A DNA stretch of 30,932 nt, from IMG/VR virus record IMGVR_UViG_2529293142_000025, positions 1 to 30,932 of that record. The stretch is one strand, 5' to 3'. Below, piece by piece: positions 1-30,932 of this stretch. The stretch comes from a virus (Duplodnaviria > Heunggongvirae > Uroviricota > Caudoviricetes). Position 1 is the stretch's first letter. Each line of letters opens with the position of its first letter. Under the pieces are notes generated by a model. It saw only the letters and a list, made by a program, of their open reading frames with translations. It had not been told where the DNA came from and did not search any database. The position numbers and the translations under genes are program-made.

Positions 1-335
1 CATCAGTTCGCCATGGGTAAATACCGGCACCCATCCGTCCATATGACGCCGCGATACCACCGCAAGACAGGGATGAATAATCGCATCGGTGTCATCTTCG
101 GTCAGGGAAGACAGTTCCTCAGCGATACGCGGGAGCATGGTTTCAAACACCGGTTTTAACTGCTCGAATTTCACGGTGTCGATTTTGCCATCAGCAGGCA
201 AACGGGAGCGAATGCTCCCGAAATCTGACATCATTCCCGCCAGTACCGGCAGAAGTTTGCGGGTCACTTTCAGCTGGTCAAAAACGCTGAGTTTTGCCGT
301 GCGATATTTCACACCTTTGATTTCGAATTCCATGT
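1..335 (-). CDS. phage tail-module protein, N-terminal part only (gene runs off the left edge of the window)
   Basis: ATG at 333-335 on minus strand with GGGGAG SD-like motif upstream; frame open to position 1 (MEFEIKGVKYRTAKLSVFDQLK...); absent from ORF track because no stop is in the window. Confidence 0.35.
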
Positions 336-336
336 A

Positions 337-777
337 TTAAAACTCCCCGAGAACCTGGTCAATCTTGCCGCAGTCAAACACCCACGGCATCGTATTACCG
401 GTTTTAGCGTTGGCGTTATCCGGTTGTTTCTGGAACGCAACACTGCGTGCCGTGATGATGTCGCCGCTGACCTTGTTGCGGATCACGATAACGTTATTCC
501 CCCATGTGGCAGAAGACTGGCTCTGTGCGTTATACGCCAGCGACAATTTTTTATTTGTCGGTGATGTCTTCAGAAGGTTAACGGTAATCGTCCCGCTTTT
601 TTCTGCATGGAGGCTGTGCATTACTTCACCATCAGCACCGATGGTCATGGTGTTTTTAGGACCGCCCATCGCAACCACAATCCCCTCTTCAGAACTTGCA
701 GAACCGTACCCGAGGTCAATCGAACCGGTCGGCCCGGTCAGCGTCGCAGTGACATCCATAAAAGAATAGGTAGACAT
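337..777 (-). CDS. putative tail tube protein (contractile-tail type)
   Basis: 146 aa ORF directly downstream of the sheath-like gene; size and position typical of a tube protein; family assignment from memory only. Confidence 0.4.
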   Translation of the reverse strand: MSTYSFMDVTATLTGPTGSIDLGYGSASSEEGIVVAMGGPKNTMTIGADGEVMHSLHAEKSGTITVNLLKTSPTNKKLSLAYNAQSQSSATWGNNVIVIRNKVSGDIITARSVAFQKQPDNANAKTGNTMPWVFDCGKIDQVLGEF

Positions 778-787
778 TCACTTCCCC

Positions 788-1933
788 TTAGCGAACAACG
801 TTAATCTGTACGTCAGCGTAATGAACCGCGCCTGCAAGTTTTATTGCAGCCTGAATCACCGGAGCCTTACGGGCTTCACGTTCTGATTGTGCCTGTTCAT
901 CCAGCGGCTGGGCGTATACGTAATAACCTTTGGGCAGTGTGTCACCTGATGACAACTGACCAAGGTCGCCCCCGTTCCATACACCCGGAGCAATCAGTCC
1001 ATTCTGAACGGCCTGATCCAGTGATTTTTCAACATTTGATAACAGTCGGGTAATACCGGCTTCAGTCTGGGGAACTTTCGTGGTGCTGGTATAAAGCAGG
1101 TTATAGAGGTTGGTCTGCACATAATTCTGTAACCAGTCCAGGCCGTGGCGTTCATCAAAGAAATCGCCGTTAGCCATCACTCCCTGCTGGAGGATAGCCG
1201 TATCATTCTGGTAGTACACGAATACATTGCAGTTTTTTGCATCAAGTGCCGATGCCTGGCTGACTGTCAGTGTTTCATACCCGACACCCGGCTCCTGCTT
1301 AAACTTGAGCGTAATCGCGGTATTACTGCCATTGAAATTAACCGTGAATGCCCGGCCAAATGCAGATAACGCAGCGTATTTATTACCCGATGAATACTGA
1401 ATAAAACTGCGTGAATATCCGGCATTTTTCAGTTTTGATGCCAAATCATCGCTGGATGCAGTCTGCAGGCATTTCTCATCGCTTGTCGTAATCGCCAGAA
1501 TACGGCTTACAGAAGAGGATTCGATCGCCGCAGCCACTTTCAGCCAGTCTGCATCCGGAATATCTTCATCGTCTGCAATCCCCAGCCCATACCATGAAGT
1601 ATAATCGAGCATGGCATTCACAGCCTGCTCCAGCGTCTCAGGCGTGGCCTGTTCGCTGTCTCCCTTCGTTTTCACCCAACGACCAACAAAAACCTCCTGA
1701 GGTTTCGGTGATTGAGAGAAAAACACCTGCGCAGCCTTATATTCTGGTGATTCCACGCCAAAATCTTTTCCAATATCTTCCGCGGCAGAATAACGGCGAA
1801 TGCGCTCACTTACCGGAATGATTGTGGACGGGCCGAGAATGAGTAATGCACCAAAATTTCGCCCTGATGCTGCACGCGGCGACATGATCACATCAACATT
1901 AACAACGTTTGATACAGGCAAGCCCTGTGCCAT
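788..1933 (-). CDS. putative tail sheath protein
   Basis: 381 aa ORF after the head-completion genes, followed by the tube-like ORF; resembles sheath proteins of PBSX-like contractile tails (memory-based). Confidence 0.4.
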
Positions 1934-1936
1934 AGC

Positions 1937-2563
1937 TTAATCTCCGAAAAAGATGACTGGTGCTTCCACCAGCGATTTAATACCGTACTCGCGCACAACC
2001 TTCCGGCGCAGACGCACCGTCATATCGTAGCGGCGGACCCATTGCTGATTAATAAGTTCAGGGAAGGGAGTCAGACCTGTGTAATCGCCAAGAGACAGCC
2101 CCAGCGCATTCAGTGCTGCGTTGTTCTGCGGTACAGATATACCGTCACGAAACCGGGACGCATACACCATCCCCGCCGGACCATAAAACGAAGCCATACA
2201 CTCAATCGTTTCATGCCGCCAGAGCTGAGAGCCATCATCGGTCTGTCTGGTGAATGCCGGACTGTCATCACCTGACCATCCGATAACCCCAAACGCACAC
2301 CAGTTCGTTTCAGCCGGTAGCAGTGGCGGCTGCTCTTTCTGCCAGCGCGGACGAACCATCCCGGCAGACAGACCGGAAACGTTACGCATCCACTGGCTTA
2401 ACAGCCTGTCGAGCGCTTCGTCATAATCCGGATCGCCACTGGTTGGTATCAGCCATCCGCGCTCTGTGCTGGTGTTATTGCTCAACCGGAGTTCCCCCAT
2501 CAAACGGCAGCAACTCACAATGCGCCTGAACGAATCCGACACCATAAGCTGTATACGGGTCAA
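1937..2563 (-). CDS. phage structural protein (neck/tail completion), start uncertain
   Basis: 208 aa ORF in structural operon; track start is TTG and overlaps the upstream gene by 89 nt; internal ATGs at about 2500 and 2392 are alternative starts. Confidence 0.35.
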   Translation of the reverse strand: MTRIQLMVSDSFRRIVSCCRLMGELRLSNNTSTERGWLIPTSGDPDYDEALDRLLSQWMRNVSGLSAGMVRPRWQKEQPPLLPAETNWCAFGVIGWSGDDSPAFTRQTDDGSQLWRHETIECMASFYGPAGMVYASRFRDGISVPQNNAALNALGLSLGDYTGLTPFPELINQQWVRRYDMTVRLRRKVVREYGIKSLVEAPVIFFGD

Positions 2564-2864
2564 CGAAGGTCACACGGTAATCACGGCCCTGATACGTCAC
2601 GATATCGGAATCACGGCCAGTCTGTCCCTGCGTCAGTCGCTCAGTCGTCACAATCAGAATTGCACCACTGATTACCTGCCCTGCCTGCATACGGCGGTTT
2701 TCCAGAGAGCGATCAACAGTTACGACTCCGGCAAACTGCTTTTTAACTTCACTGTCGCTGCCGATCCCGTCCTCATCCACCGTTTGCACTCGGCGTGTTA
2801 CCCACAAATTGAAGTCGCAAAAATCGGGGTCAAAAAGCACATCTGTTACATCAAGAGTCGGCAT
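2475..2864 (-). CDS. phage structural protein (head-tail joining region)
   Basis: 129 aa ORF, same strand and tight spacing within structural operon. Confidence 0.4.
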   Translation of the reverse strand: MPTLDVTDVLFDPDFCDFNLWVTRRVQTVDEDGIGSDSEVKKQFAGVVTVDRSLENRRMQAGQVISGAILIVTTERLTQGQTGRDSDIVTYQGRDYRVTFVDPYTAYGVGFVQAHCELLPFDGGTPVEQ

Positions 2865-3405
2865 CTTTATCCCTCACAACATGGGTAATGGCTCTGCGAT
2901 ATTGCCCGGTGTCAATTAATGGTTTCGCCAGATCGGTTCCCGGAGATTCGCCAGCAGCACGCCGGGCAAGTTCCAGTGTTGCCCCCTTGCGCCCCCGACG
3001 AGCCCGGGCTTCAACAGTGCTGTCAGCAAGCGGCGTAAAGCCGGTAATGGTCATGTAACGCCTGACGCCATTAGCGGCCAGCGTTCCGGCACGGTTGAGT
3101 GCGCGTTCTGCTCCCGCAGCATTACCATCAAGTGCAGCCTGCGCCGCGGCTTTGAGCTGCGGCACCGTCTGCTCTTCTGCCGATTTAACGCCGGGGACCA
3201 GGTGAGGTCGTGGCGGGATGTTCTGCTCTGGTGAGCCGTATTCGTTGAGGTAACCGATGCCCGCATTACCAAACGGAACATCATCCCGCCCGCTGTCTTC
3301 CGAAGGGATGCCGACCAGCACATCTTTTTTGGTTAACGACCTGAGCGCATCCAGAATGGCCTTAGCGTTATCCACCCTCGTTGTTACACCGCTTTTGAAA
3401 CTCAT
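2851..3405 (-). CDS. phage structural protein (head-tail joining region)
   Basis: 184 aa ORF; ATGA-type coupling to the upstream gene at 3402-3405. Confidence 0.4.
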
Positions 3406-3809
3406 AGCTGGCGACCGCCTGCACCGAACATCGTGATCAACTGATAAAATTCAGCGCCATATCGGGTGTTATTCCAGAAGCCTGCATCAGGATTCAGCGT
3501 CGCGCTGATGTCATAACTGACACTTACCTTGTCAACGGACTTTGAGGACTGAACACCATTGGTTGAGCCGCCAGGGCCACCAGCCAGCATCGCCCTGCTG
3601 TCAGCCGCCCAGAGCGTCATGTAGTGCGCAACGAACAATCCGGCAAAGTACGGAAACAACTTTTTGCCGGTGACGTTTTCGCTCAGCAGTTCATCTGCCA
3701 GATTCAGACGAAACTGGATTTGCGCTTCGGGATATTTGGCAGGGTCAGCAAACTGCGGGAAGTCGCGGCGAAAATCACTTACCGCTGGCAGACTTTGATT
3801 CTTTGGCAT
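3402..3809 (-). CDS. phage structural protein (head completion/connector-like)
   Basis: 135 aa ORF within operon. Confidence 0.4.
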
Positions 3810-3996
3810 TTTTTACCTCGTTACGCGCGTCTGTGGCTTTGCCAACGGATACTTCCGCGTGCGCACGAGTGAACCAGTGCGTGGCAACGTCTTCCTCCAC
3901 AGCATGACGGCCTTTAACAAACTCGCGCCGTGAACCGTCGGGAAGCGTGAGCACAAACGGGGTATGTACGTGTATTACTGCATTATTTTTTGCCAT
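3775..3996 (-). CDS. small phage protein downstream of capsid gene
   Basis: 73 aa ORF between major capsid gene and head-completion genes. Confidence 0.3.
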
Positions 3997-4037
3997 CGGG
4001 TCATCCTTAATGGCCCCGCCAGGGGGCCATATGGCTG

Positions 4038-4979
4038 TTAAATGCCATCAACGTACGAAATGGTTTCTTTGTACACTGGCTCGACTGCACCCAGCTTGCC
4101 GTAGTAAGTGACGATCTGATACAGACCGCGATACTGCACCGGCACGCTCTGAAGCGGAACCAGCGGGTAGCGGACGTATTTTTTATCGTTGGTGTACGCA
4201 ACCATGCGATCCTTATTCCCCACACCACGGCCTTTCAGCCATTTAACCGCGCGGATATTCAGCGGAACACCGTTCTGGTGATAGCTGATGGTGTTGGTCT
4301 GAAGGTACGTCAACAGGGACTGGTTACCCGCAGATGAAACGATGATGCTGGACAACAGAGCAAACTGCTCAGGCGGGATCAGCAAATCACGCGGAACCAC
4401 AGAGTAACCGGAAGCGGCCCACGCATCAGACAGCACCTGGTTAATGCTTGCGCGGATTTCGTCCGGTGTTGAGGTTGCCCACGTTTTGGCAGCGTTGTTG
4501 ACAGGCACACCGTCCAGGGTAACAAGACCTTTCAGGTTTAATGCGGAATCGCCAACATATACCTGTTCATCGTTATCCATCTGCCATTTCAGTTGCATAC
4601 CGTCATACTTCTGCGTATCAATCGGGCGGCCGACCTGCTGAGCAGCCTGCAATTCTATGACCGTCCAGCCAAGTTCCATCCCCCACAGGTTCAGCGGGTT
4701 ACCGGATTTGCCGATATCCACGTTCACGCCAGCAATAGCGGTTGAGTCTTTGCCTACCCAGTTTTTGCCATTCGGATTTGCACCAGTACCCGCAGCGGCG
4801 AAGCTGGTATTCGTCCAGCTGGAAATGTCATCTGCGATGGAGACATCTTCACGCAGTTGGATATCGCGGGTCCAGGTGTACCCCACCAGTGGCAGGTTCA
4901 GCGTCTGGTCGAGTCGCTCCAGCTCCCCGATGAGAAAGGCACCAGAGCTGTCAACGGTTGCCTGATCAAAAGTAATCAT
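4038..4979 (-). CDS. putative major capsid protein
   Basis: 313 aa ORF in the expected position after scaffold-like and decoration-like genes; typical size. Confidence 0.5.
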   Translation of the reverse strand: MITFDQATVDSSGAFLIGELERLDQTLNLPLVGYTWTRDIQLREDVSIADDISSWTNTSFAAAGTGANPNGKNWVGKDSTAIAGVNVDIGKSGNPLNLWGMELGWTVIELQAAQQVGRPIDTQKYDGMQLKWQMDNDEQVYVGDSALNLKGLVTLDGVPVNNAAKTWATSTPDEIRASINQVLSDAWAASGYSVVPRDLLIPPEQFALLSSIIVSSAGNQSLLTYLQTNTISYHQNGVPLNIRAVKWLKGRGVGNKDRMVAYTNDKKYVRYPLVPLQSVPVQYRGLYQIVTYYGKLGAVEPVYKETISYVDGI

Positions 4980-4990
4980 TCGTCTGTTCC

Positions 4991-5416
4991 TTAAATCTTC
5001 CAGGAAATTTCTGCATTGCCGTCAGCATCACCGGCACCTGTGAATTCAGCGTTGGTCAGCACCACGTTTTTGCCACTGACTGACGTGGCCATGAATCCAC
5101 CCAGCGGCACTTTGATGGATTCATCAGTGGAGACGACAACGTATACCGGGTCGCCTTTTTTGATGGTGCTGGCATCAAAATCAGAACCGAGATTAACGGT
5201 CACGTAGCCACGCTTCATTGCGTCGCCCGGGAAGTTCTTGCCACTCCCCACCTGGCGAACCATGTCCGGCTGCGAAGTGGTCGGATAAGGGCGCACATAG
5301 ATCCCCTTCACCTTGTCTGCGGTATCACCATCTGCCAGCGGCACGAAAAAACCGTCATCATCGTATTTACCAGCCAGCCCATAGGCAGCAAAGGCGTTAT
5401 CGGATTTAAGGACCAC
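4991..5416 (-). CDS. phage head protein (decoration/structural-like)
   Basis: 141 aa ORF immediately upstream of capsid gene. Confidence 0.4.
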   Translation of the reverse strand: MVLKSDNAFAAYGLAGKYDDDGFFVPLADGDTADKVKGIYVRPYPTTSQPDMVRQVGSGKNFPGDAMKRGYVTVNLGSDFDASTIKKGDPVYVVVSTDESIKVPLGGFMATSVSGKNVVLTNAEFTGAGDADGNAEISWKI

Positions 5417-5498
5417 CGGTTCGACGGTTAAGTCCTGCGGGCGAGAGACAGCCCGGCAATGCCAACAGGCATCCGGTACAGAAATACATTATTCATTT

Positions 5499-6373
5499 TT
5501 ACCCTTTACGGTTTGCCCAGAATTCGGCGTTTTGTTTGTTCAGGGAAGCGATACTGGTCATGCCCATGTTTGGGCGCTGTGCATCGCCGGTGGTGGCGCG
5601 GGTGTTTCGCCCTTTGGCAATCTCAGACACGGCATTAAACGCCATGTCGACCGATTGTTTCGGTAATTTGCGGATATCCGCATCACCGACTATCTGGCGA
5701 ACCAGCGTTTTGTCAGCAGAAGCCAGAACCTCACGTTTGAACGCGGTCGGTTTCATCTTACGGCTCAGATCAATACCCGGAACAATAACTTCGGCACGCC
5801 AGGCTGCGTCACCAGTAATCGTGGTTTCCTCTTCATCGTCCTCGCCGTCACCGGTCGGATTATCGTCAGGCTTATTATCGTTATCGCCCGTGGCATTTCC
5901 TTCCAGCTTAGCCAGCAGGGCTTTCAGTAATGTTTTGAGGTCATCATCACTGTCGCCGGTTGGGCCTCCCCCATCTCTGGTGCTTTGTCCGGTAGTGGTT
6001 GCTGCGGGGACAGGTTGATATTGAGATTAACGCCCTGCGGCAAATCCCCCTCATCTCCTGTAACCGATGCGGGAGCCGACTCCACCAGTTCGTTCATGGT
6101 GTCGGCATCTCCTGTCTTGATGGCCGCACGCATGCGGTTCCACCAGTTTTTCTTTTGATTTGCCATTGTGTCTCTGTCTCCAATTGCACAACGATTTCCG
6201 GCTCTGCCTTTAGGGACAAGAGCCACATGGTTTCCGGTAATATCGACCTGCTCAGCTTTACCTGGCTCGGTCTGCTCGTACTCCGCGTCATAGCCGCACG
6301 ACACTTCGCGCAGGCCATCTTCGATAAGCTGAATGGCGTTTTCGTCTTTGACGATAAGGTCAGCCAGCATCAA
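5499..6373 (-). pseudogene. head-assembly (scaffold-like) gene with a reading-frame break
   Basis: 149 aa ORF (5924..6373) ends at TGA, but a second frame with an acidic scaffold-like stretch (DNDNKPDDNPTGDGEDDEEETT) is open from 6026 down to 5499 with no start codon before ATG 5756; frames would join with one extra base in the C5 run at 5968-5972. Confidence 0.35.
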
Positions 6374-6717
6374 ATCAGACTGCTCACCGTCCCGCGCCGG
6401 ACATTCTGGAGGTGCCCGACAGCAAGCTCTTTCCAGTTCTCGGGATTTACCAGCCGCACATTCCCGTTTTCATCTTCAGGATGCAGAATCGTGATGCTCA
6501 TCCCTTCGAATGAGGCAAGCGTGGCCGGATGGAATACCTGCTCAGGAGAACGCGTGACGACTATTTCACCGAACTTATCGGGTTTCAGTTTTGGCAGGTC
6601 ATCAGCACCATAGAGCTGCTTACCTGTTCGTCCTATCGGCACGTCTTTGCACAGCAACGAGCCGTCAGCCAGCTGATAGCGGGTTTCCCCCAGCCGGGTA
6701 TTGAAAAAATATTTCAT
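6370..6717 (-). CDS. phage head-assembly protein (may belong to the same gene family as the adjacent ORF)
   Basis: 115 aa ORF, ATGA overlap with the 149 aa ORF. Confidence 0.35.
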
Positions 6718-6731
6718 GTGTTACCTGCGAT

Positions 6732-7505
6732 TCAGGCGGGATAAGAATGGGAGGTGGGAAAAACGATTTCTTTATAACAGCGACAATTCGGGAGCTCGCC
6801 AGCGTGACCGGTCATGCCATCAAGCGTTGGAGGTTTGCCCCATTCGACAAATTTACCTTCCATTTCCCGATGAGAATGCCTGACGTCACCATCTTCGGCT
6901 GTACGCCAGATATAACCATTCGAACCAATTGCCAGCGCACGCGCCTGATCCAGCGCGCCGGTTGCACGTCCAAGTTCAGTACGGGCAATCAGGTCAGCTC
7001 TGGACTTTGCTATATCACCCGATGCGGCTATTTCTTTAGCAAAATGTTCCGCTCTCCCACCGGTCACAACAGCTTCAATCGCCCGATTCTGGATGTCGTA
7101 CACCCTGTCAGCCGCCTCGAGGGGTAGCGATTTAATGTACTTAACCTGTTCAGCAACGATGGATTTCATCACCTGCCCTGGCGGGGCACTGTTTACCAGA
7201 TTGCGTAGCTCACGGCTGATGGTTTTGCTGTGTTTACGCCACTGCTCATCATTCTTGCGCACAATATCGGCGGTAAAGTTTTCCGCGACCTTTGTCGCCC
7301 AGGGGGTGATGATTTCACTGTAGCGTTCCAGCGCCTCAATAATTTCCGTGATACTGTCATTTGAACCATCGTAGTGACCATTTACGATGTCCCCTACCGC
7401 CCGCGCTATCCTGCGTAGGCTGGTTCGATACCGGATTTCCGCCTGACGGTTCCTGCGGTTCGTCATCAGGTTCGCCGATGCCGGGCGGCGCTTCATCTTC
7501 GGCAT
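6732..7505 (-). CDS. head morphogenesis protein, Mu F-like
   Basis: C-terminal motif ...WRTAEDGDVRHSHREMEGKFVEWGKP...GHAGELPNCRCY typical of F-like minor head proteins; located after portal; start uncertain (all ATG starts overlap portal by over 100 nt). Confidence 0.55.
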   Translation of the reverse strand: MPKMKRRPASANLMTNRRNRQAEIRYRTSLRRIARAVGDIVNGHYDGSNDSITEIIEALERYSEIITPWATKVAENFTADIVRKNDEQWRKHSKTISRELRNLVNSAPPGQVMKSIVAEQVKYIKSLPLEAADRVYDIQNRAIEAVVTGGRAEHFAKEIAASGDIAKSRADLIARTELGRATGALDQARALAIGSNGYIWRTAEDGDVRHSHREMEGKFVEWGKPPTLDGMTGHAGELPNCRCYKEIVFPTSHSYPA

Positions 7506-8823
7506 TCTCGATGTCCTCGTCGGTAATGGATGCCCCGATGCCGGTTACGTCAGAATTTTCTCGCAAATCAGTCATAGCGGCCTTCAGTGTCATCAGACCA
7601 TCACCCAGCGCTGTACTGATTGCGTTGGTAGTGTTTAACGCCACCGTTGAGCGATCGACATCAGACATTTGCCAGAGCGGGTTAAACTCAAACGTGAAAT
7701 CGTCCGGCAGCGGCTTGCCAAGCTCCGAACGATGCATGATGTCCAGTATCCGCCGCACCGGAAGACGTAAACGCCTCTCCTGCAACGAACTGATGCGGTC
7801 GTAATAGTTGGCAAGGTCTGCATCACCGGTAGAAAATCCTTTCGGGGACTGTCCGAACAACCGCACCAGTGGGATACCAACAGCGCCACTAATCTGTTCT
7901 GCAAACTGTGATAGGATGTCATCCAGACCACTGAAGCTGTACTGATGCGTTTCAAACTTATCCCGCGAGTCCATGAGCGTCATGCCTTCATTGCTCTGGA
8001 ACTGTCGAATCAGGTCGATATTCTTCAGCAACGCTTCATACGCAGGACCACCAAGTGCGATAAGCTCGCGTAGCTTCTCCACGCTGTAGGTACGCAAATG
8101 CGCTTTGTAGACCAGCTGCGCCGCGCCGACAGTAGCGCTGTCGAACGCGGTAAGACGATCCCAGATACGCTCTACAACCGACATTCCCCATTCGTTCTCG
8201 GTCATCTTCTGCTGAAATGGCAGCGTGACGCCATCAAAGCGAATCAGTCGACTGTGATGAATGCGCCAGGCAGGAATTCCCGTTGCTGTGGTCACCACAT
8301 CGTAAAACTCAGGTTTACCCAGGTCCGGCCCCATATCTTTAATGCGGCGGGTCAGTACCGGGTCAATCATCCAGCGGTCGAGCGGGAGAATCCCCTTAAA
8401 CTTGCCCTTACCGATGGTTTCGGGTCGCAGCGGGGTCATTGGTGCCTGCCCCTCAATCATGATGAAACCCACCGCGCCGCCGTAGAGACGCGACCATTTC
8501 AGCACGTCATTCAGCGCATCCCAGATTTGCAACTCATCCAGTTGTGATTCGAGAATGCCACGATCTTTTGCATCAATTTCCGAAGTGATGCGAATGCCTT
8601 TGCGGGTCATATCATCCGGGATAGCATCGACTGCTTCGCCGATGATCCAGGATGAACGATAGGACCATTCCACCAGCATGCGGTTACGACTGGTGAAATT
8701 AGCCCGGTAGGTGGATGCTGAGTGCTGGTTAGGTGTCTGCATCCCTACGCGGGCAATAAAATTCTCATAACCATCAGCTGTGGCCTGCGCAGTTCGCCGC
8801 AGGGCTTGTTTGTTTCGTGCCAT
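7357..8823 (-). CDS. portal protein
   Basis: 488 aa ORF immediately after terminase large subunit, acidic C-terminus; start shares position 8823 with terminase stop. Confidence 0.6.
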   Translation of the reverse strand: MARNKQALRRTAQATADGYENFIARVGMQTPNQHSASTYRANFTSRNRMLVEWSYRSSWIIGEAVDAIPDDMTRKGIRITSEIDAKDRGILESQLDELQIWDALNDVLKWSRLYGGAVGFIMIEGQAPMTPLRPETIGKGKFKGILPLDRWMIDPVLTRRIKDMGPDLGKPEFYDVVTTATGIPAWRIHHSRLIRFDGVTLPFQQKMTENEWGMSVVERIWDRLTAFDSATVGAAQLVYKAHLRTYSVEKLRELIALGGPAYEALLKNIDLIRQFQSNEGMTLMDSRDKFETHQYSFSGLDDILSQFAEQISGAVGIPLVRLFGQSPKGFSTGDADLANYYDRISSLQERRLRLPVRRILDIMHRSELGKPLPDDFTFEFNPLWQMSDVDRSTVALNTTNAISTALGDGLMTLKAAMTDLRENSDVTGIGASITDEDIENAEDEAPPGIGEPDDEPQEPSGGNPVSNQPTQDSAGGRGHRKWSLRWFK

Positions 8824-10226
8824 CAGGCCTGTCTCCCCAGCTGTTCCCAGATATCCAGCGATGTATCAATTGGCGCGAAGGCCATAATGAATGCGTCAGC
8901 AACGTTTGGTGACGGTATCTCGCGTTTTGCGAGGTCTTTTTTACTTTCGACCATCACACGTCCGTTACGGTCAAAATCGCGATGAGGTGTTGTCAGTTCC
9001 AGTTTCAGCTTTTCAAGCAACGGACAACGAGAATCTATGCTGATCAGCTCATCCACAGGATACTGTTCTCCGTTGTTAATGGCGTTAAACGTATTTCTGA
9101 AACGGTCAGCCACCAGCCACCATGCCTGAGCCTTAAGATTTGCGAAAAAGTCTTTGTTGGGGATGCCGTTGTATTCGTCATCTGGCTCATGCACACCAGC
9201 ACCGGCGTTAAACCTCTGGTAATTCACACGTCTCGCGTATGCATTCTCGCTCTTCCGGTCAGCGTTAATTTCAGAGAATTTAGCACCGGCAGACGCACCA
9301 ACACCGATAGAGTCGTAAACAATTTCTGCTTCACGCTCCAGCGCCGCCTGATAAGTACGCTGGCAGCTCTTCAGTAATTCATCTTCTTTGGCCTTCCATT
9401 CGTCGGCCCAGAAAACAACGGATCCGTGACGGTAAACGTTAGCGCACTTATCTGTACCACTGTCAGCCACGTCAAAGCCAATACGCTTTCTTCCACTGGG
9501 TTCGAAATTTAACGTTTTGTGCGCATCCACTGCGGCTTCTATCCAGGACAGTTTGATGATTGCCGCATCATCATCAGACTCCGGAACGCCCTCATACACA
9601 TGTTTAAAACCATCCGGATCACGGCGTCGCGCCGCGTCGATAACCTTAAGCATGGTGTCAGACAGAAACGGATTTTCGTCATAGTTAATTTTGCGGATGA
9701 GAGTGCCTTCGGGCGGATCAACAACGAAGTTGCGCCAGACGAAATCAGTAACAAGTCCGGGATTGAATATGAACCAGCATTCCGAACCCTCTTTACGGAT
9801 CGTTGGCTCCAGAATTTTCCACTGGTATTCCGTCAGTGCGTGGGCTTCTTCCAGCCACAACACATCGATCCCCTCCAGTGACTTAATTTCTTCGATGTTG
9901 CGCCATAATCCATAAAAAACAAATTCCGAGCCAGTAACCCGGTTAATGATTTTGTTGTTCAGAATACGGAAACGGTGCCGCAGGCCAAACCTGTCTATCT
10001 GAATTTTGAGCAGGGTATACACCGACTCTTCGATTTTGTTCTGGATCTGACGGGCACAACAAAAACGCAGGGTGTATTTATTCGACAGAAATATGGCAAT
10101 ACCAGCGGCATCCCATGATTTTGACGATGACCGGCCACCATAAAGCACTTTGTTACGTGCCCGCGTAGTCCAGAAACTACGTAAAGCCGGATTAAGCGTC
10201 GGTTTGGATGTCAGAGTAGAAGTCAT
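8823..10226 (-). CDS. terminase large subunit
   Basis: Walker A-like YGGRSSSKS near N-terminus, about 470 aa; start chosen at ATG 10224-10226 (alternative ATG at 10244); the longer track ORF start is probably not used. Confidence 0.8.
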   Translation of the reverse strand: MTSTLTSKPTLNPALRSFWTTRARNKVLYGGRSSSKSWDAAGIAIFLSNKYTLRFCCARQIQNKIEESVYTLLKIQIDRFGLRHRFRILNNKIINRVTGSEFVFYGLWRNIEEIKSLEGIDVLWLEEAHALTEYQWKILEPTIRKEGSECWFIFNPGLVTDFVWRNFVVDPPEGTLIRKINYDENPFLSDTMLKVIDAARRRDPDGFKHVYEGVPESDDDAAIIKLSWIEAAVDAHKTLNFEPSGRKRIGFDVADSGTDKCANVYRHGSVVFWADEWKAKEDELLKSCQRTYQAALEREAEIVYDSIGVGASAGAKFSEINADRKSENAYARRVNYQRFNAGAGVHEPDDEYNGIPNKDFFANLKAQAWWLVADRFRNTFNAINNGEQYPVDELISIDSRCPLLEKLKLELTTPHRDFDRNGRVMVESKKDLAKREIPSPNVADAFIMAFAPIDTSLDIWEQLGRQA

Positions 10227-10941
10227 TGAGGTCACGCTCTCCATTGCCATCATCAATACCTGCATCACGGCGAAGACGATCAGCCTCCAGAGACACCTTA
10301 TCGGTGGCGGCCTTGCGGTAGGCTGTATCAGCAAATATTTTTCCTACCGTCGCAAGCGTGCCAACGATGGACTCAATACGAACTGTATTGCGCATCATTG
10401 CTTTCTCGGCGGCGCTGATATTTTCCATCAGCATCTTCCTTTCCTGGTCCCCATTAGCATCTTCCAGCGACACCAGCCACCGACCAATATTCTCTGCAGC
10501 GACAAGGTTGTTAGCACGAAGGCGAAATAATTCGTCCTCGAGCGTCAACGCTTTAGCGTCCTCTATCACCTCATCTTTGAGCAGAAGGCGACGGGCATAA
10601 CCACCGTGTTTTAATGCCTGCTGGTTACCGGGTTGGAATGGGTTAGTCGGGGGATCGGTACGCATTCCGCGTATCGGTTTCGTATCCGGTGTAGCTTCTG
10701 TTTTTGGTTGCGTACCTTTTTGTGTAAGGCCAGTAATGGCAGGCTTTCTGCTGGTACGCACTTTTCTTTTTTGCGTACCATTTTTGCAAACCTGCGTACC
10801 GCCACTGCGTACCCAACCAAGCTTTTTAGCCCTCTTCCTGATAGCCCCTTCTGTTACGCCATATTTCTCGCCTATATCACGGAGGCTAAGGACTCCGGCC
10901 CGGTATGCCGTTTCGATGGCCTCCCAGTCCGGTTTTGCCAT
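10192..10941 (-). CDS. terminase small subunit (HTH DNA-binding)
   Basis: 249 aa ORF directly upstream of large subunit; N-terminal HTH-like LSLRDIGEKYGVTEGAIRKRAKKLGW. Confidence 0.6.
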   Translation of the reverse strand: MAKPDWEAIETAYRAGVLSLRDIGEKYGVTEGAIRKRAKKLGWVRSGGTQVCKNGTQKRKVRTSRKPAITGLTQKGTQPKTEATPDTKPIRGMRTDPPTNPFQPGNQQALKHGGYARRLLLKDEVIEDAKALTLEDELFRLRANNLVAAENIGRWLVSLEDANGDQERKMLMENISAAEKAMMRNTVRIESIVGTLATVGKIFADTAYRKAATDKVSLEADRLRRDAGIDDGNGERDLNDFYSDIQTDA

Positions 10942-10999
10942 GAATTTTTCCTCTTAGTGACATTATCGCAGCCCCTCACCGAAGGGCTGCTGTAATGCC

Positions 11000-23639: not shown

Positions 23640-24044
23640 CGGAATACCTTATTACTGGTTGTGTGAGAACTCCAGTATACCACCGAGCCTGAAGTGGTAA
23701 AAAGACAGGCGCACAACACGAAGGCGCACGGAGGAGGTGTTTTTCCCTTAGAAGGCTTGTCGTTAAACTTCTTCGACCGTGCGCTTCCGGTTGTGAATAA
23801 CAACACTGCTGTGTGTAGTCTTGGTGGCATCAGTTTTTTCTTGAAGTTCGACTGATGTCCGCCCTTTTTAAAGTGAATTTTGTGATGCGGTGAATGCGGC
23901 TAAGCGCACGCGGCACAGTTAAAAGTCATGTTAGTCCTTATTGGTTTGGGTGGGAAAGCCGACTGTAATTGTTAACTGGTTGCAGTCACCTGGAGGCACC
24001 AGGCACCGCATCAACAAAGTTCATTTGTAAAAATGGAGATAATT

Positions 24045-24266
24045 ATGATTGCACATCACTTCGGAACTGATGAAATACCACGTCAGTGTGTGACTCCTGG
24101 TGATTATGTTCTTCATGAAGGCCGGACATATATCGCCTCGGCAAACAATATTAAAAAGCGAAAACTTTATATTCGTAACCTGACTACAAAAACATGCATT
24201 TCTGACTGCATGATTAAAGTCTTCCTCGGTCGTGATGGTTTACCTGTAAAGGCGGAGTCATGGTGA
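24045..24266 (+). CDS. kilR: KilR, FtsZ-targeting killing protein of Rac-type prophage
   Basis: 73 aa [32 protein letters not shown]...; GGAG SD 7 nt upstream; matches KilR as recalled. Confidence 0.7.
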
Positions 24267-24436
24267 TGACTAAGAAAATAAAATGTGCTTACCACCTTTG
24301 CAATAAAGGAATTGAAGAAAGCAAAAGCATTAAAAGACCACTTCATTTCATGCGTGGAGTTATCCCAACGACGGAAATGAAAAAATATTGTAGTGAAAAT
24401 TGTGCCGAAAAAGACCAGATGGCACACGAACTTTAA
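24266..24436 (+). CDS. ydaE: YdaE, small Cys-rich zinc-binding protein
   Basis: 56 aa [56 protein letters not shown]; start overlaps kilR stop (TGATG); below ORF-track cutoff. Confidence 0.6.
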   Translation: MTKKIKCAYHLCNKGIEESKSIKRPLHFMRGVIPTTEMKKYCSENCAEKDQMAHEL

Positions 24437-24509
24437 TTAACTGACTATGCGAAACTGAATTTATGCCAGCAATGGCAGGGATTCGCTCAACCTTAATTAA
24501 GGAGAAAAA

Positions 24510-24785
24510 ATGATTACCAATTATGAAGTCACTGTTGTAACTACCGATGACATTGTTCACGAGGTTAATCTGGAAGGAAAGCGTATTGGCTACGTGATTA
24601 AAACAGAAAATAAAGAAACCCCATTCACTGTGGTTGATATTGACGGTCCATCAGGCAACGTAAAAACACTTGATGAAGGTGTCACAAAAATGAGTCTGGT
24701 TCACATCGGAAAGAATCTGCCCGCAGAAAAAAAAGCCGGATTTCTGGCAACTCTGATTGCAATGAAATTAAAAGGTGAAATCTGA
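24510..24785 (+). CDS. racC: RacC
   Basis: 91 aa MITNYEVTVVTTDDIVHEVNLEGKRIGYVIKTENKETPF...; matches RacC as recalled. Confidence 0.65.
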   Translation: MITNYEVTVVTTDDIVHEVNLEGKRIGYVIKTENKETPFTVVDIDGPSGNVKTLDEGVTKMSLVHIGKNLPAEKKAGFLATLIAMKLKGEI

Positions 24786-24883
24786 AAAAAGAAAGCCTGC
24801 ACAACGTGCAGGCCTGAGTGAAGAACCTGGGACATTTATTCATCACTCGCAGTAATTTTAATCTGAGTTGAGGTTAAAAAACA

Positions 24884-27535
24884 ATGAGCACAAAACCACT
24901 CTTCCTTTTACGGAAAGCGAAAAAATCATCCGGTGAACCTGACGTCGTCCTGTGGGCAAGCGACGATTTTGAATCAACCTGTGCCACTCTGGACTACCTG
25001 ATCGTTAAGTCAGGTAAAAAACTGAGCAACTATTTTAAAGCTGTTGCCACAAATTTTCCTGTCGTTAATGACCTTCCCCCTGAAGGTGAGATCGATTTTA
25101 CCTGGAGTGAACGCTATCAACTCAGCAAAGACTCCATGACCTGGGAACTAAAACCGGGAGCAGCGCCAGACGACGTTCACCATCAGGAGGATGCACCGGA
25201 AACCGAAGAAGCGACGGGAGGCCAGGAAGAAAACGCGCAGGCAGACGCCCACGAGGATTGCCAGGATTGCGAAGTCTCTGTAGCCACTTTGCGGTTCACA
25301 CAGCGTCTTCTGCACATTTTTACGTATGCAGCCGGGGATCGAAAATACCTGCATCATGCCACCCGTGAACAACGCAAACACATTACTGCTCTTGAGATGG
25401 ATCAGGAAAACAGCTATGTCCAGAATCTGCTGTTGGCCATACGCAGCATGGCAGAACCGACAACTCTGGATAATGCCGCCCTGCTCCGCCTGACTGATGC
25501 AATTAAGGCAGTGTTCTCTATCACGAAAAAACATCAGCCCTATGAATTTAAGAATTTCATTTCAGCCTGGCTGGATACCGAACACATTGATCGCGGTCTT
25601 CTGACAAAAGAATGGCGAAAAGGGAATCGTGTTTCACGCATCACTCGCACGGCTTCCGGTGCTAATGCTGGCGGCGGGAACCTCACCGATCGCGGCGAAG
25701 GTTTCGTCCACGATCTGACATCACTGGCGCGCGATGTAGCCACTGGCGTACTGGCCCGTTCAATGGACGTGGACATCTATAACCTTCATCCGGCACACGC
25801 TAAACGCATTGAGGAAATTATCGCTGAAAATAAACCACCCTTTTCTGTTTTCCGCGACAAATTCATCACCATGCCTGGCGGGCTGGATTATTCCCGCGCC
25901 ATCGTGGTTGCGTCCGTGAAAGAAGCACCAATTGGGATCGAGGTCATCCCCGCACACGTCACTGAATATCTGAACAAAGTACTGACTGAAACCGATCATG
26001 CCAACCCTGATCCGGAAATCGTGGATATTGCCTGCGGTCGCTCCTCGGCCCCGATGCCGCAACGAGTAACAGAAGAAGGAAAACAGGACGATGAAGAAAA
26101 ACCACAACCATCTGGCGCAATGGCAGATGAACAGGCAACGGCTGAAACAGTGGAACCGAATGCAACTGAACATCATCAGAACACGCAGCCGCTGGATGCT
26201 CAGTCACAGGTAAATTCTGTTGATGCGAAATATCAGGAACTGCGGGCAGAACTCCATGAAGCCCGGAAAAACATTCCATCAAAAAATCCTGTCGATGCCG
26301 ATAAATTGCTTGCTGCATCACGTGGTGAATTTGTTGACGGAATTAGCGACCCGAACGATCCGAAATGGGTTAAGGGGATCCAGACTCGCGATTCTGTGTA
26401 CCAGAACCAGCCAGAAACGGAAAAAATCAGCCCGGATGCGAAACAACCTGAGCCAGTAGTGCAACAGGAACCGGAAATAGTCTGCAATGCCTGCGGTCAG
26501 ACTGGCGGGGATAACTGCCCTGACTGTGGTGCGGTGATGGGCGACGCAACATACCAGGAAACATTCGGTGAAGAGAATCAGGTTGAAGCTAAGGAAAAAG
26601 ATCCGGAGGAAATGGAAGGCGCTGAACATCCGCACAATGAGAATGCTGGCAGCGATCCGCATCGCGATTGCAGTGATGAAACTGGCGAAGTCGCAGATCC
26701 CGTAATCGTAGAAGACATAGAGCCAGGTATTTATTACGGAATTTCGAATGAGAATTACCACGCGGGTCCCGGCGTCAGTAAGTCTCAGCTCGATGACATT
26801 GCTGATACTCCGGCACTGTATTTGTGGCGTAAAAATGCCCCCGTGGACACTACAAAGACAAAAACGCTCGATTTAGGAACCGCTTTCCACTGCCGGGTAC
26901 TTGAACCGGAAGAATTCAGTAACCGCTTTATCGTAGCACCTGAATTTAACCGCCGTACAAACGCCGGAAAAGAAGAAGAGAAAGCGTTTCTGATGGAATG
27001 CGCAAGCACAGGAAAAACGGTTATCACTGCGGAAGAAGGCCGGAAAATTGAACTCATGTATCAAAGCGTTATGGCTTTGCCGCTGGGGCAATGGCTTGTT
27101 GAAAGCGCCGGACACGCTGAATCATCAATTTACTGGGAAGATCCGGAAACAGGAATTTTGTGTCGGTGCCGTCCGGACAAAATTATTCCTGAATTTCACT
27201 GGATCATGGACGTGAAAACCACAGCGGATATTCAACGATTCAAAACGGCTTATTACGACTACCGCTATCACGTTCAGGATGCATTCTACAGTGACGGTTA
27301 TGAAGCACAGTTTGGCGTGCTGCCAACTTTCGTTTTTCTGGTTGCCAGCACAACTGTTGAATGCGGACGTTACCCGGTTGAGATTTTCATGATGGGCGAA
27401 GAAGCAAAACTGGCAGGCCAGCAGGAATATCACCGCAATCTGAGGACCCTGGCTGACTGCCTGAATACCGATGAATGGCCAGCTATTAAAACGTTATCAC
27501 TGCCCCGCTGGGCTAAGGAGTATGCAAATGACTAA
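24884..27535 (+). CDS. recE: exodeoxyribonuclease VIII (RecE), C-terminal PD-(D/E)XK nuclease domain
   Basis: 883 aa; long acidic/disordered N-terminal and central region; C-terminal domain ...[34 protein letters not shown]...[14 protein letters not shown]...[16 protein letters not shown] matches the RecE nuclease domain. Confidence 0.85.
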
Positions 27536-28336
27536 GCAACCACCTATCGCAAAAGCCGATCTGCAAAAAACCCAGGGAAACCGTGCACCAGCAGCAGTAA
27601 AAATAACGACGTGATCAGCTTTATTAATCAGCCATCAATGAAAGAGCAACTGGCAGCAGCTCTCCCACGCCATATGACGGCTGAACGAATGATACGTATC
27701 GCCACCACAGAAATTCGTAAGGTTCCGGCGCTAGGAAACTGTGACACCATGAGTTTTGTCAGTGCGATCGTTCAGTGTTCACAGCTCGGCCTTGAGCCAG
27801 GTAGCGCCCTCGGCCACGCATATTTACTGCCTTTTGGTAATAAAAACGAAAAGAGCGGTAAAAAGAACGTTCAGCTAATCATTGGTTATCGCGGCATGAT
27901 TGATCTGGCTCGCCGTTCTGGTCAAATCGCCAGCCTGTCAGCCCGTGTTGTCCGTGAAGGTGACGAGTTTAGTTTTGAATTTGGCCTTGATGAAAAGTTA
28001 ATACACCGCCCGGGAGAAAACGAAGATGCACCAGTGACCCACGTCTATGCTGTCGCAAGACTGAAAGACGGAGGGACTCAGTTTGAAGTTATGACGCGCA
28101 AACAGATTGAACTGGTGCGCAGCCAGAGTAAGGCTGGTAATAACGGGCCATGGGTAACTCACTGGGAAGAAATGGCAAAAAAAACGGCTATTCGTCGCCT
28201 GTTTAAATACCTGCCTGTCTCAATTGAAATCCAGCGTGCAGTATCAATGGATGAAAAGGAACCACTGACAATCGATCCGGCAGACTCCTCTGTATTAACC
28301 GGGGAATACAGTGTAATCGATAATTCAGAAGAATAA
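27528..28336 (+). pseudogene. recT: RecT single-strand annealing protein, frame broken in an A-run near the 5-prime end
   Basis: ATG 27528 (overlapping recE stop) encodes [28 protein letters not shown]-stop (27612-27614); the main ORF 27611..28336 (VISFINQPSMKEQLAAALPRHM...) is in the next frame; one extra A in the A5 run 27599-27603 restores ...AAVKNNDVISFINQ... Confidence 0.8.
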
Positions 28337-28380
28337 TTCAGCCTGGCGGTGTAATGCACCGCCAACGTGAGACAGTTTTT

Positions 28381-28587
28381 ATGACAAAAATTATGAGATA
28401 TGACGATGTTAAACCATGTCCGTTTTGTGGTTGTCCATCTGTTACAGTGAAAGCAATTTCAGGATATTACCGGGCAAAATGCAACGGATGCGAATCCCGA
28501 ACTGGCTATGGTGGAAGTGAAAAAGAAGCACTCGAAAGATGGAATAAACGAACTACTGGAAATAATAATGGAGGTGTTCATGTATAA
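28381..28587 (+). CDS. ralR: restriction alleviation protein RalR/Lar-like, Cys4 zinc-ribbon
   Basis: MTKIMRYDDVKPCPFCGCPSVTVKAISGYYRAKCNGCESRTGYGG...; start at internal ATG 28381. Confidence 0.6.
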   Translation: MTKIMRYDDVKPCPFCGCPSVTVKAISGYYRAKCNGCESRTGYGGSEKEALERWNKRTTGNNNGGVHV

Positions 28588-28768
28588 AATAACTGCCACT
28601 ATTGAAAAAGAAGGTGGCACTCCTACTAACTGGACAAGATATTCAAAATCTAAATTAACGAAATCAGAATGCGAAAAAATGCTCTCAGGGAAAAAAGAAG
28701 CAGGCGTGTCCAGAGAGCAGAAAGTAAAGCTGATAAATTTTAATTGCGAGAAACTTCTGTCCTCGTGA
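28580..28768 (+). CDS. ydaC: YdaC-like small protein
   Basis: 62 aa MYKITATIEKEGGTPTNWTRYSK...; GGAGGTG SD 5 nt upstream. Confidence 0.55.
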   Translation: MYKITATIEKEGGTPTNWTRYSKSKLTKSECEKMLSGKKEAGVSREQKVKLINFNCEKLLSS

Positions 28769-28868
28769 GTTGCATTATATACAAATTAGAACTTCATAGC
28801 TGATTATTAAAAATCAACCACACCCGCCAGTATTCTGTATATTTACTGGCGGTCATATCGTAAGAGGT

Positions 28869-29156
28869 ATGGCAATGAATCTTGTGACACTCAAAACGTG
28901 GGGAAAACTCAGATATCCGGATAACCCACCATCAATATCAACGCTGAGACGATGGGCAAGGAATGGAAACATTTATCCTGCACCTGAACTACACGGGAGG
29001 AGTTACAGGGTGGTTCCGGAAGCTTTCTATATCAACCCAAATAAGGTTGATACCGATATAACACACCATCAGCCTAATGGGCGACAAGGGAGAGACAGTC
29101 CGTTACTGGAGAAGTTAAAACATGCAGCGGAAAAAATACGATCCCAATTTACCTAA
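28869..29156 (+). CDS. xis: excisionase (lambda Xis-like)
   Basis: ...LVTLKTWGKLRYPDNPPSISTLRRWARNGNIYPAPELHGRSYRV resembles lambda Xis; overlaps int start by 35 nt as in lambda. Confidence 0.6.
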   Translation: MAMNLVTLKTWGKLRYPDNPPSISTLRRWARNGNIYPAPELHGRSYRVVPEAFYINPNKVDTDITHHQPNGRQGRDSPLLEKLKHAAEKIRSQFT

Positions 29157-30198
29157 AAACTTAACATATCGAAGGAGGGACAAAGCATATTACTGGCGCA
29201 ACCCTCTGACGAAAGAAGAATTTACACTAGGTAAAATTTCAAGAAGAGATGCAGTAGCGCAGGCAATTGAAGCAAATCATTATATATACAAAAACTACTC
29301 TCCTGCTGCCTTAATTGAAAAACTAAAAGGGTTCGACTCATTTACTATGGCAGACTGGATTGAACGTTACAAAACGATTCTTATAAGGAGAAAAGTGTCC
29401 AGAAATACTTATAAAATTCGGGTAAATCAACTGGAGACAATAAAAGAAAAATTAGGAGGGGTTTTACTGACAGAAATAACCACTCGCCATATTGCCGAGT
29501 TTCTTGATTTGTGGATTGAAGGAGGGAAAAACACGATGGCAGGATCAATGCGTTCTGTGTTATCTGATATGTTCCGCGAGGCCATTGTTGAAGGACGTAT
29601 ATCTCAAAATCCAGTAACGCCAACAAGAGCACCGAAAATAGTAGTTACAAGAGAACGGCTGAAACTAAAGACATACAACTGCATCAGGGAGGCAGCAGAT
29701 CAACTTCCGACATGGTTCCCATTAGCTATGGACTTAGCCCTTGTAACAGGACAACGTCGCGAAGACATAACAAATATGCGGTTCAGTGAGATTTATGATG
29801 ATCGTCTCCACATCAGGCAAATTAAGACAGGAATGATGATTGCTATCCCCCTGTCACTCAGCCTTCCTGTCGCTGGTTTACGACTTGGTACAGTAGTTGA
29901 ACAGTGCCGCATGGTAAGTAGGGGGGATTATCTAATCAGTGCCGGGATTAGAAAAAACAGCCCTGACGGCAGCATTCACCCGGACGGCCTGACAAAGAAA
30001 TTTGTCGCAGCCAGAAAATTAACAGGTATCCAGTTCAGTGAAAACCCACCAACTTTTCACGAGATCAGAAGCCTGGCTGGACGATTGTACAAAGAAACAT
30101 GTGGGGAAGAATTTGCTCAACGTCTACTTGGCCACACATCGGAGAAGACAACAAAAATGTATCTTGATGAGAGAGAAAAAACGTACTTACTGCTCTGA
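29122..30198 (+). CDS. int: tyrosine integrase, lambda Int family
   Basis: 358 aa; N-terminal arm-binding-like [27 protein letters not shown] and C-terminal ...[15 protein letters not shown]...[15 protein letters not shown] align with lambda Int including the catalytic region. Confidence 0.85.
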
Positions 30199-30245
30199 TT
30201 TTAACGTAAATGGATTGTTAAATGTGTTTTGGTTGTGATATAACC

Positions 30246-30348
30246 AAAAAAGACCGGAATACAGAAATTCGAGTAAATTTCGAGTAATTTCGGGGAGACG
30301 TTTGCAACTAATTGATTTTAAATACAATTAAAAAAAGACCGAATACGA
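30246..30348. repeat. imperfect direct repeat AAAAAAGACCG(G)AATAC (30246-30263 and 30330-30348) flanking 11 bp tandem TTCGAGTAA units; candidate att core/arm sites at the prophage junction
   Basis: the second copy is the 3-prime half of the SdsR terminator; the first lies 86 bp toward int. Confidence 0.4.
30301..30328 (+). promoter_or_regulatory. sigma-70 promoter for RyeA
   Basis: TTTGCA, 16 nt spacer, TACAAT. Confidence 0.45.
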
Positions 30349-30432
30349 TTCCTGTATTCGGTCCAGGGAAATGGCTCTTGGGAGAGAGCCGTGCGCTAAA
30401 AGTTGGCATTAATGCAGGCTTAGTTGCCTTGC
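30330..30432 (-). ncRNA. sdsR: SdsR (RyeB) small RNA
   Basis: about 103 nt on minus strand starting GCAAGGCAACUAAGCCUGCAUUAAUGCC..., ending in hairpin GACCGAAUACAGGAAUCGUAUUCGGUC plus U7; sigma-S-like -10 TCTATTCTTAA just upstream; identity from memory. Confidence 0.6.
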
Positions 30433-30561
30433 CCTTTAAGAATAGATGACGACGCCAGGTTTTCCAGTTTGCGTGCAAAATGGTCAATAAAAAGCGTGGT
30501 GGTCATCAGCTGAAATGTTAAAAACCGCCCGTTCTGGTGAAAGAACTGAGGCGGTTTTTTT
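30336..30561 (+). ncRNA. ryeA: RyeA (SraC) small RNA, antisense to SdsR
   Basis: plus-strand transcript predicted from the TTTGCA/TACAAT promoter to the terminator at 30521-30561; fully overlaps sdsR on the opposite strand. Confidence 0.45.
30521..30561. terminator. bidirectional Rho-independent terminator (RyeA on plus, yebY on minus)
   Basis: hairpin AAAACCGCC...GGCGGTTTTTTT with U-tracts on both strands. Confidence 0.55.
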
Positions 30562-30590
30562 ATTGGAAATCAAAAGGCTATTTTAGGTAA

Positions 30591-30932
30591 TTAACAGAGT
30601 TTTTCAGCTCGTTCTATAAACGGTGCCAGACTCATTTTTTCGCCGGGATTGTTAGGATCATCAATCTGAATCACCGAAATGGGTTGGGCTTTAGTCTTCC
30701 CACTGGCAACTTCCTTTTGTGCGATATCGTTTAAAGGATACTGCACGAGGGTACTTGGGTTGATGACATACAAAGCATTACCCGGTCGGCAAGTCAGCAT
30801 CACCTCTTCGCGATTAAACGCCCATTTGTCTTTACCCACTTCAAAACGGCTGACGGTAATCACCTGCGGTGCAGCCAGCGCCGCTGCAGAACTGGTGAGT
30901 AACAGAAACGCCAGAATACTTTTTTTCATCAT
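30591..30932 (-). CDS. yebY: periplasmic protein YebY (signal peptide), chromosomal flank
   Basis: 113 aa with N-terminal signal peptide [20 protein letters not shown]; start codon at the window edge; gene neighbourhood ryeA/sdsR-yebY as in E. coli (from memory). Confidence 0.55.

Follow-up and report, generated by a model that had tools for sequence, protein, structure and literature searches.

We found that positions 5499-6717 of the window, by which we mean the whole 30,932-nucleotide (nt) stretch that was analysed (IMG/VR record IMGVR_UViG_2529293142_000025, a virus of the Caudoviricetes), hold one gene of the DUF2213 family (PF09979) that one-base deletions have cut into three pieces. 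In relatives this putative prohead protease-scaffold gene is an uninterrupted frame of 406 amino acids (aa), whereas here it is spread over three frames by two 1-nt deletions; it lies on the minus strand, as do all genes of the region. The first piece is a 115-aa open reading frame (ORF) at 6370-6717, which covers the N-terminal half of the predicted protease domain, including His79, and matches positions 4-91 of the DUF2213 profile with 62 bits. The second, a 149-aa ORF at 5924-6373, carries the C-terminal half of that domain, with Ser140 and His164, and the start of a linker; it matches profile positions 96-166 with 74 bits and ends in a 15-residue out-of-frame tail, EAQPATVMMTSKHY. Because they match two halves of one Pfam domain, the 115- and 149-aa ORFs are pieces of one gene. 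The third piece is a 176-codon open frame at 5499-6026, which comprises an acidic disordered linker and a C-terminal helical domain, the predicted scaffold, and matches positions 231-416 of PHROG 1961, the C-terminal 186 of that profile (E 1e-56). Within this third piece an 85-aa ORF can be called at 5499-5756, which is probably not a genuine gene.

A preliminary description of this DNA, made from the sequence letters, had singled out the third frame as start-less, and the ORF list and its translation bear this out, the first ATG, GTG or TTG being the ATG at 5756 that opens the 85-aa ORF and corresponds to Met322 of the intact protein. The strongly acidic, scaffold-like segment that it reported is evident in the translation (GDSDDDLK...GDGEDDEEETT), the overlap of about 100 nt with the 3' end of the 149-aa ORF comes to 103 nt, and the assignment to a head-assembly gene region agrees with the family matches and the gene order. 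Bases 5968-5972 read exactly CCCCC, with T and A on either side, and one extra C in this run does fuse the two frames, as had been proposed, giving a 291-aa ORF that starts at TTG 6373, in line with the estimated length of about 290 aa; relatives carry that base. The description was also right that the third frame continues from the 149-aa ORF, but it overlooked that the latter is likewise only a piece, with no genuine start, the TTG and ATG at 6373 and 6370 overlapping the stop of the 115-aa ORF.

When the missing bases are restored at both 6387-6388 and 5968-5972, the result is a 406-aa protein that differs from WP_240764358.1 at 3 residues. The junction peptide of the fused product is PEMGGGPTGD, and its counterpart in the truncated product is PEMGEAQPATVMMTSKHY. 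An intact relative matches PF09979 with an E value of 2.9e-42 and 145 bits (cut-off 22), and its match to PHROG 1961 spans the full length of the protein (E 3e-199). Prophages of E. coli, the isolated phages vB_EcoM-606R2 and 689R2, and Salmonella phage SEN34 all have one coding sequence (CDS) of 1221-1233 nt, labelled 'DUF2213 domain-containing protein', in the interval between the MuF-like and cement genes; its annotated length is 1221 nt in E. coli A41, vB_EcoM-606R2 and SEN34. Among the 120 closest homologues listed, all are either about 390-450 aa long or 576-aa fusions with the cement protein, and they cover 95-100% of the query. A search of the protein library returned 6457 representatives, and among the 150 listed, distant members (with identities as low as about 35%) have for the most part 390-520 aa and align from residue 1 to about residue 405 of the query. 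The copy in the window has the match to the family's hidden Markov model (HMM), the family's fold and its position in the head module, and it lacks the uninterrupted ORF of about 400 aa; it is a disrupted (pseudo)gene of the DUF2213 family, or a mis-sequenced one. SEN34 gp5 (YP_009191611), WP_240764358.1 and the pseudogene I6I16_RS12710 of E. coli FDAARGOS_1059 occupy the same place in the head module at 84-99% DNA identity, and when compared with them only the window has the second break at 6387-6388 together with lesions in the spacer and the cement gene. The interrupted layout is thus a real observation and more than a chance one, since the pieces align end to end with a single-ORF gene, although the biology behind it is ordinary.

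Comparing positions 1-10997 of the window with three relatives at about 98% identity (L001, L002 and L003), we found that the only insertions or deletions (indels) in conserved sequence are four 1-nt deletions; a further indel, near 10985, falls in a variable intergenic stretch. At 6387-6388 the window reads CC where the relatives read CCC (GGG on the coding strand), a deletion private to the window that parts the first and second fragments. The C5 run at 5968-5972 (G5 on the coding strand) lies in a conserved PEMGG motif, and the relatives there read CCGCCC, CCACCC or CCCCCC. Between the DUF2213 stop and the cement ATG, a T5 run at 5496-5500 stands for T6 in the relatives, a private deletion with no coding effect, and at 5452-5454 a C3 run stands for C4 in the cement gene, again privately, shifting its frame after about 14 codons. 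A further private 1-nt deletion, A5 for A6 in the relatives, lies at 27598 in recT. A Logan contig assembled from SRR057628 equals window positions 1-8803 except at four places, three of the deletions being absent from it and position 5807 differing (Ala305 in the window, Ser elsewhere); this near-identical comparison covers 1-8803, the contig ending before 27598. Searches for the private alleles found the exact 86-mer at 6387-6388 in none of the 316 complete E. coli genomes that gave a match; its exact pattern is also missing from JGI metagenome contigs and GTDB genomes. Of the 153 complete genomes with a match at recT 27598, likewise, none has the exact 83-mer. The four places where the window departs from the SRR057628 contig all sit within 935 of the 8803 nt (5454-6388; p ~0.004 under a uniform model), and this clustering suggests a low-coverage or mis-assembled local patch. 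Judged by these comparisons, the private deletions at 6387-6388, 5496-5500, 5452-5454 and 27598 are most probably homopolymer under-calls made in sequencing or assembly.

The C5 run is common to several assemblies from different projects (L007, L008/L138, L012, L016 and L135). Its carriers include Logan contigs from SRR057628, SRR15989255 and ERR7012635, the NCTC PacBio assembly UGEB01000001 (L007) and the complete genome of E. coli FDAARGOS_1059 (L135); in the SRR057628 contig the gene is called as two products of 264 and 85 aa, and in L008/L138 and L016 the C5 run is the sole indel in the DUF2213 gene. The FDAARGOS_1059 copy has an identical 81-mer around C5 and is annotated by the Prokaryotic Genome Annotation Pipeline (PGAP) of RefSeq as 'DUF2213 domain-containing protein, frameshifted', so that not only is the gene family already known but the C5 allele is already flagged as a pseudogene. 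The exact C5 81-mer occurs in 1 of 292 complete genomes with a match. No IMG/VR contig has C5, whereas 117 have the six-base, in-frame version, and scans of JGI metagenome contigs and GTDB genomes for the exact C5 pattern yielded nothing beyond 19-mer matches by chance, in unrelated organisms. Because it recurs in independent assemblies, C5 is probably a real but rare inherited inactivating mutation, present in a few E. coli prophage lineages. The NCTC locus, which is 97.4% identical to the window, and the FDAARGOS_1059 locus have the same mismatches against the window, by which we identify them as the same prophage. In the PacBio-only NCTC record, moreover, the N-terminal part of the DUF2213 gene and the major capsid gene (119 + 204 aa) are disrupted by additional 1-nt losses in homopolymers, none of which is in the FDAARGOS record. 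Because these extra deletions are absent from the latter, NCTC protein entries such as STK91972.1 are partly artefacts, and the NCTC-only deletions show directly how pure sequencing errors appear.

Next, we investigated the structure of the intact protein, using an AlphaFold2 (AF2) model of a 98%-identical relative built from an alignment of 50 diverse homologues. The model has a mean predicted local distance difference test score (pLDDT) of 80; one made with a shallow alignment of 20 close homologues reached a pLDDT of 35 and was discarded. Residues 1-180 form a compact beta-rich domain (pLDDT >90), residues 221-257, which include the frameshift site (about residue 250), and 274-288 are disordered, and residues 290-375 are helical (block-mean pLDDT ~79-96). 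His79, Ser140 and His164 are invariant in 50 diverse sequences, with a spacing that resembles the His-Ser-His triad of assemblin. A search of BFVD returned many 'prohead serine protease' entries, and PDB sequence searches, with the single protein and with a profile, gave no real match. From the assemblin-like fold and its conserved His, Ser and His we infer that the N-terminal domain is a prohead serine protease of the T4 gp21/herpesvirus-assemblin type, whose catalytic role is predicted. T4 gp21 and the assemblins of human cytomegalovirus (HCMV), Kaposi's sarcoma-associated herpesvirus (KSHV) and varicella-zoster virus (VZV) share the three invariant residues at 9-19% sequence identity; unlike them, the predicted protease here is fused to its own scaffold domain. 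The C-terminal helical domain is, by analogy, a predicted scaffold that would direct capsid assembly.

The nearest structural parallel to the C-terminal part comes from Pseudomonas phage Pa193, whose gp24 belongs to the same family by label (PF09979 'Pa193_gp24') and stands in the same order of gp24, cement gp25 and capsid gp26. Residues 286-326 of Pa193 gp24 form a helix-turn-helix pentamer inside the capsid at the five-fold vertices, and a scaffolding role was ascribed to the protein (PMC11456595). Towards their C-termini, both Pa193 gp24 and the DUF2213 protein have a helical region with acidic turns; Pa193 gp24 is 478 aa long and too diverged for a sequence match to the PDB fragment. A by-product of the analysis is a confident assignment, on structure, of DUF2213 to the T4 gp21/assemblin fold, as a putative prohead protease joined to a scaffold, which supports and extends the label 'putative scaffolding protein' given to Pa193 gp24. 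Among better-known phages, P2 gpO is a protease-scaffold fusion, and lambda C/Nu3 are nested genes that pair a prohead protease with a capsid-binding scaffold C-terminus. Both are likened to the DUF2213 protein as functional analogies, without sequence comparison, and no conserved internal start of the kind that lambda Nu3 has is seen here. Two homologues of 446 and 449 aa (P0076 and P0080) have a tandem duplication of about 40 residues in the linker/scaffold segment (NLNINLSPQQ...KALLA). The SEN34 paper contains no virion proteomics for that phage, and a Burkholderia paper on an 'essential DUF2213 domain' was set aside as having no bearing on the locus.

Taken together, we consider it likely, with a probability of roughly 85%, that one protease-scaffold gene has been broken by homopolymer deletions that are not programmed, the C5 deletion being real and the others errors. 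The C6 to C5 slippage would have arisen on a minority allele with the synonymous Gly codon GGG and, falling in the disordered linker, would leave a 264-aa protease without the scaffold/targeting domain. In the intact protein, to extrapolate from P2 gpO and Pa193 gp24, the protein would be drawn into the growing procapsid by its C-terminal domain, the protease would then process the core, and the C5 allele should accordingly abolish or cripple head assembly. Several points weigh against this reading. The division into a real mutation and errors is drawn from comparison with other assemblies, and the C5 agreement between the window and the SRR057628 contig is not independent if the two share a read set, in which case the FDAARGOS and NCTC evidence carries the argument for C5. 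The cluster of three private indels and one substitution in 935 of 8803 nt is not what random error predicts, and needs either a poor patch or a real local cluster of mutations. The rest of the FDAARGOS_1059 head-tail module is annotated as intact, and the C5 allele may retain residual function; protease activity and scaffolding, for their part, are predicted from the fold and from homologues. That all the lesions are real, in a decaying prophage perhaps carried by a mismatch-repair-deficient lineage that gathers -1 shifts in runs, is a less probable account, though one to be taken seriously: the C5 allele is real elsewhere, other assemblies have independent lesions of the gene (a W307 amber, a Mu-like insertion, other homopolymer deletions), and every lesion in the window is a -1 change in a run, the classic slippage spectrum. 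It has to contend, however, with an otherwise base-identical contig of 8.8 kb that lacks all three private deletions, with the absence of the 6387-6388 and 27598 alleles from every complete genome with a match, and with the proportion of four private indels (three in the 8.8 kb compared) to one substitution, which is a signature of under-calling and not of evolution; furthermore, similar extra deletions in the NCTC PacBio record are gone in the FDAARGOS assembly of the same prophage. We regard as still less probable that C5, too, is a sequencing artefact and that the real prophage has an intact 406-aa gene. In its favour, 454, Ion Torrent, Nanopore and unpolished PacBio chemistries read G6/C6 runs too short, the window has other suspicious homopolymer deletions, and so do some of the Logan contigs with C5 (L012); yet C5 is found in five other assemblies from different projects, FDAARGOS_1059 and NCTC agree on it from two projects while disagreeing on the NCTC-only deletions, and L008/L138 and L016 carry it with no other indel in the gene. 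The preliminary description had allowed for an artefact, which fits the window-private and error-like lesions at 6387-6388, 5496-5500 and 5452-5454 but not the recurrent C5.

That description had also raised a programmed frameshift yielding two scaffold isoforms, and upon examination of the site we consider it very unlikely that programmed -1 ribosomal or transcriptional slippage on the G5 run produces a short protease together with a full-length protease-scaffold fusion. The coding strand reads ATG GGG GAG within the PEMGG motif, and on the C5 allele a tRNA-Gly that occupies GGG in the P site could slip back by one base and pair again within the G run; no slippery heptamer of the form X XXY YYZ is present at the site. 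The equivalent Gly codon in the 117 IMG/VR contigs is GGC in 61, GGT in 47 and GGG in 9, all in frame. Because relatives read GGC, GGT or GGG, there is no conserved signal, and the G run is, on these sequences, a synonymous accident that 108 of the 117 contigs lack. The 87 nt of RNA downstream of the site fold somewhat better than shuffled sequences (-25.6 kcal/mol, z -2.2), which would suit slippage, but the predicted fold is diffuse with a weak centroid, and no compact hairpin or pseudoknot lies 5-9 nt downstream. No conserved two-frame layout was found among the relatives, whose homologues are single ORFs, the isolated phages vB_EcoM-606R2 and SEN34 included, and the rarity of C5 among complete genomes and its pseudogene flag in RefSeq also speak against a programmed site, although the remaining module is annotated as intact in FDAARGOS_1059. 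Because the second break, upstream, splits the protease domain, the gene of the window could moreover not be rescued by any one recoding event. The sole likeness to the -1 frameshift of the lambda G/GT tail chaperone is that two frames overlap in a virion-assembly gene; unlike there, the site has no conserved heptamer, the two-frame layout is not conserved and the relatives have a single ORF. Equally far-fetched, in our estimate, is the idea that the G6/G5 tract in the disordered linker acts as a reversible slippage switch or a leaky recoding site that turns capsid assembly off or down. Were it true, FDAARGOS_1059 and other carriers would harbour a phage that is silenced yet able to revert, and the independent lesions of the DUF2213 gene would reflect selection for head-less, non-lytic prophages. 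There remains the idea of a natural two-gene layout in which the downstream part is made from an internal start, as a free scaffold or an 85-aa protein. Nested scaffold genes occur in lambda, and gene finders call the 85-aa ORF in at least 24 contigs; but the contigs with this call are exactly those in which the parent gene is broken, by C5, by other homopolymer deletions, by the W307 amber or by the Mu-like insertion. Met322 is Met or, in many relatives, Val, ATG 5756 is preceded, at a distance of 7 nt, by no more than a weak GAG and has no convincing Shine-Dalgarno sequence, and the 85 residues make up only part of a helical domain whose confident prediction begins near residue 290. We found no natural case among the relatives of two separate proteins with an internal start, the outcome that the preliminary description had named as contrary to its fusion, and we hold this layout to be highly improbable.

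Several independent lesions affect the DUF2213 gene, in a sample that is biased towards broken copies, while the rest of the FDAARGOS_1059 head-tail module is annotated as intact. In L137 (5006-6226), and also in L009, L011, L013 and L014, codon W307 is changed from TGG to TAG on two haplotype backgrounds, a further natural null allele, with calls of 306 aa and 85 aa. This amber allele is absent from the 301 complete E. coli genomes with a match, and its candidacy as a natural two-protein form was rejected, its carriers having surfaced only through the search with the 85-aa ORF. In the Logan contig SRR35774738_20 (L136), a Mu-like prophage at about 1-9500, with homologues of MuA, MuB, Gam, Mor and GemA, sits inside a related DUF2213 gene, of which only the last 85 or so codons can be called, as an 85-aa ORF at 10001.

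The breakage of this gene carries little biological weight, and its use lies in a warning on annotation and quality for positions 5450-6390 and 27598. The stretch 5450-6390 should be treated as low quality, and annotators should merge the 115-, 149- and 85-aa ORFs, as well as the shortened cement and recT genes, or mark them as frameshifted, instead of keeping them as separate proteins. The cement gene is expected at 4991-5496 and encodes 168 aa in relatives; the window retains a 141-aa ORF with a GTG start at 4991-5416, from which the first 27 or so codons are lost, and its match to PF22758/PF23982 starts at profile position 33-34. This 141-aa ORF is an artefact of the private C4 to C3 deletion at 5452-5454. 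In two 576-aa homologues in the protein library (P0077 and P0089), the DUF2213 protein reads through into the cement protein encoded downstream, forming a fusion. Similarly, the Rac-type recT gene, expected at 27528-28336, is called at 27611-28336 and encodes 241 aa, shortened at the N-terminus, against 269 aa in E. coli O103:H2 strain 129; the A6 to A5 change in it is probably another homopolymer error.

The head module belongs to a temperate prophage of the myovirus type. Its order, from the ORF list and annotated relatives, in which it is identical, is terminase large subunit (8823-10334), portal (DUF1073; 7357-8823), MuF-like minor head protein (6732-7505), the DUF2213 gene, the cement/decoration gene and the major capsid protein (DUF2184; 4038-4979). 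The prophage is a mosaic, in which this SEN34-like myovirus head-tail module meets an early/recombination region of the Rac type in the stretch 23800-30932; the Rac-like region contains kilR, recE (24884-27535), recT, an excisionase gene and an integrase gene (29122-30198), and the integrated prophage adjoins the host genes yebY (30591-30932) and copD.
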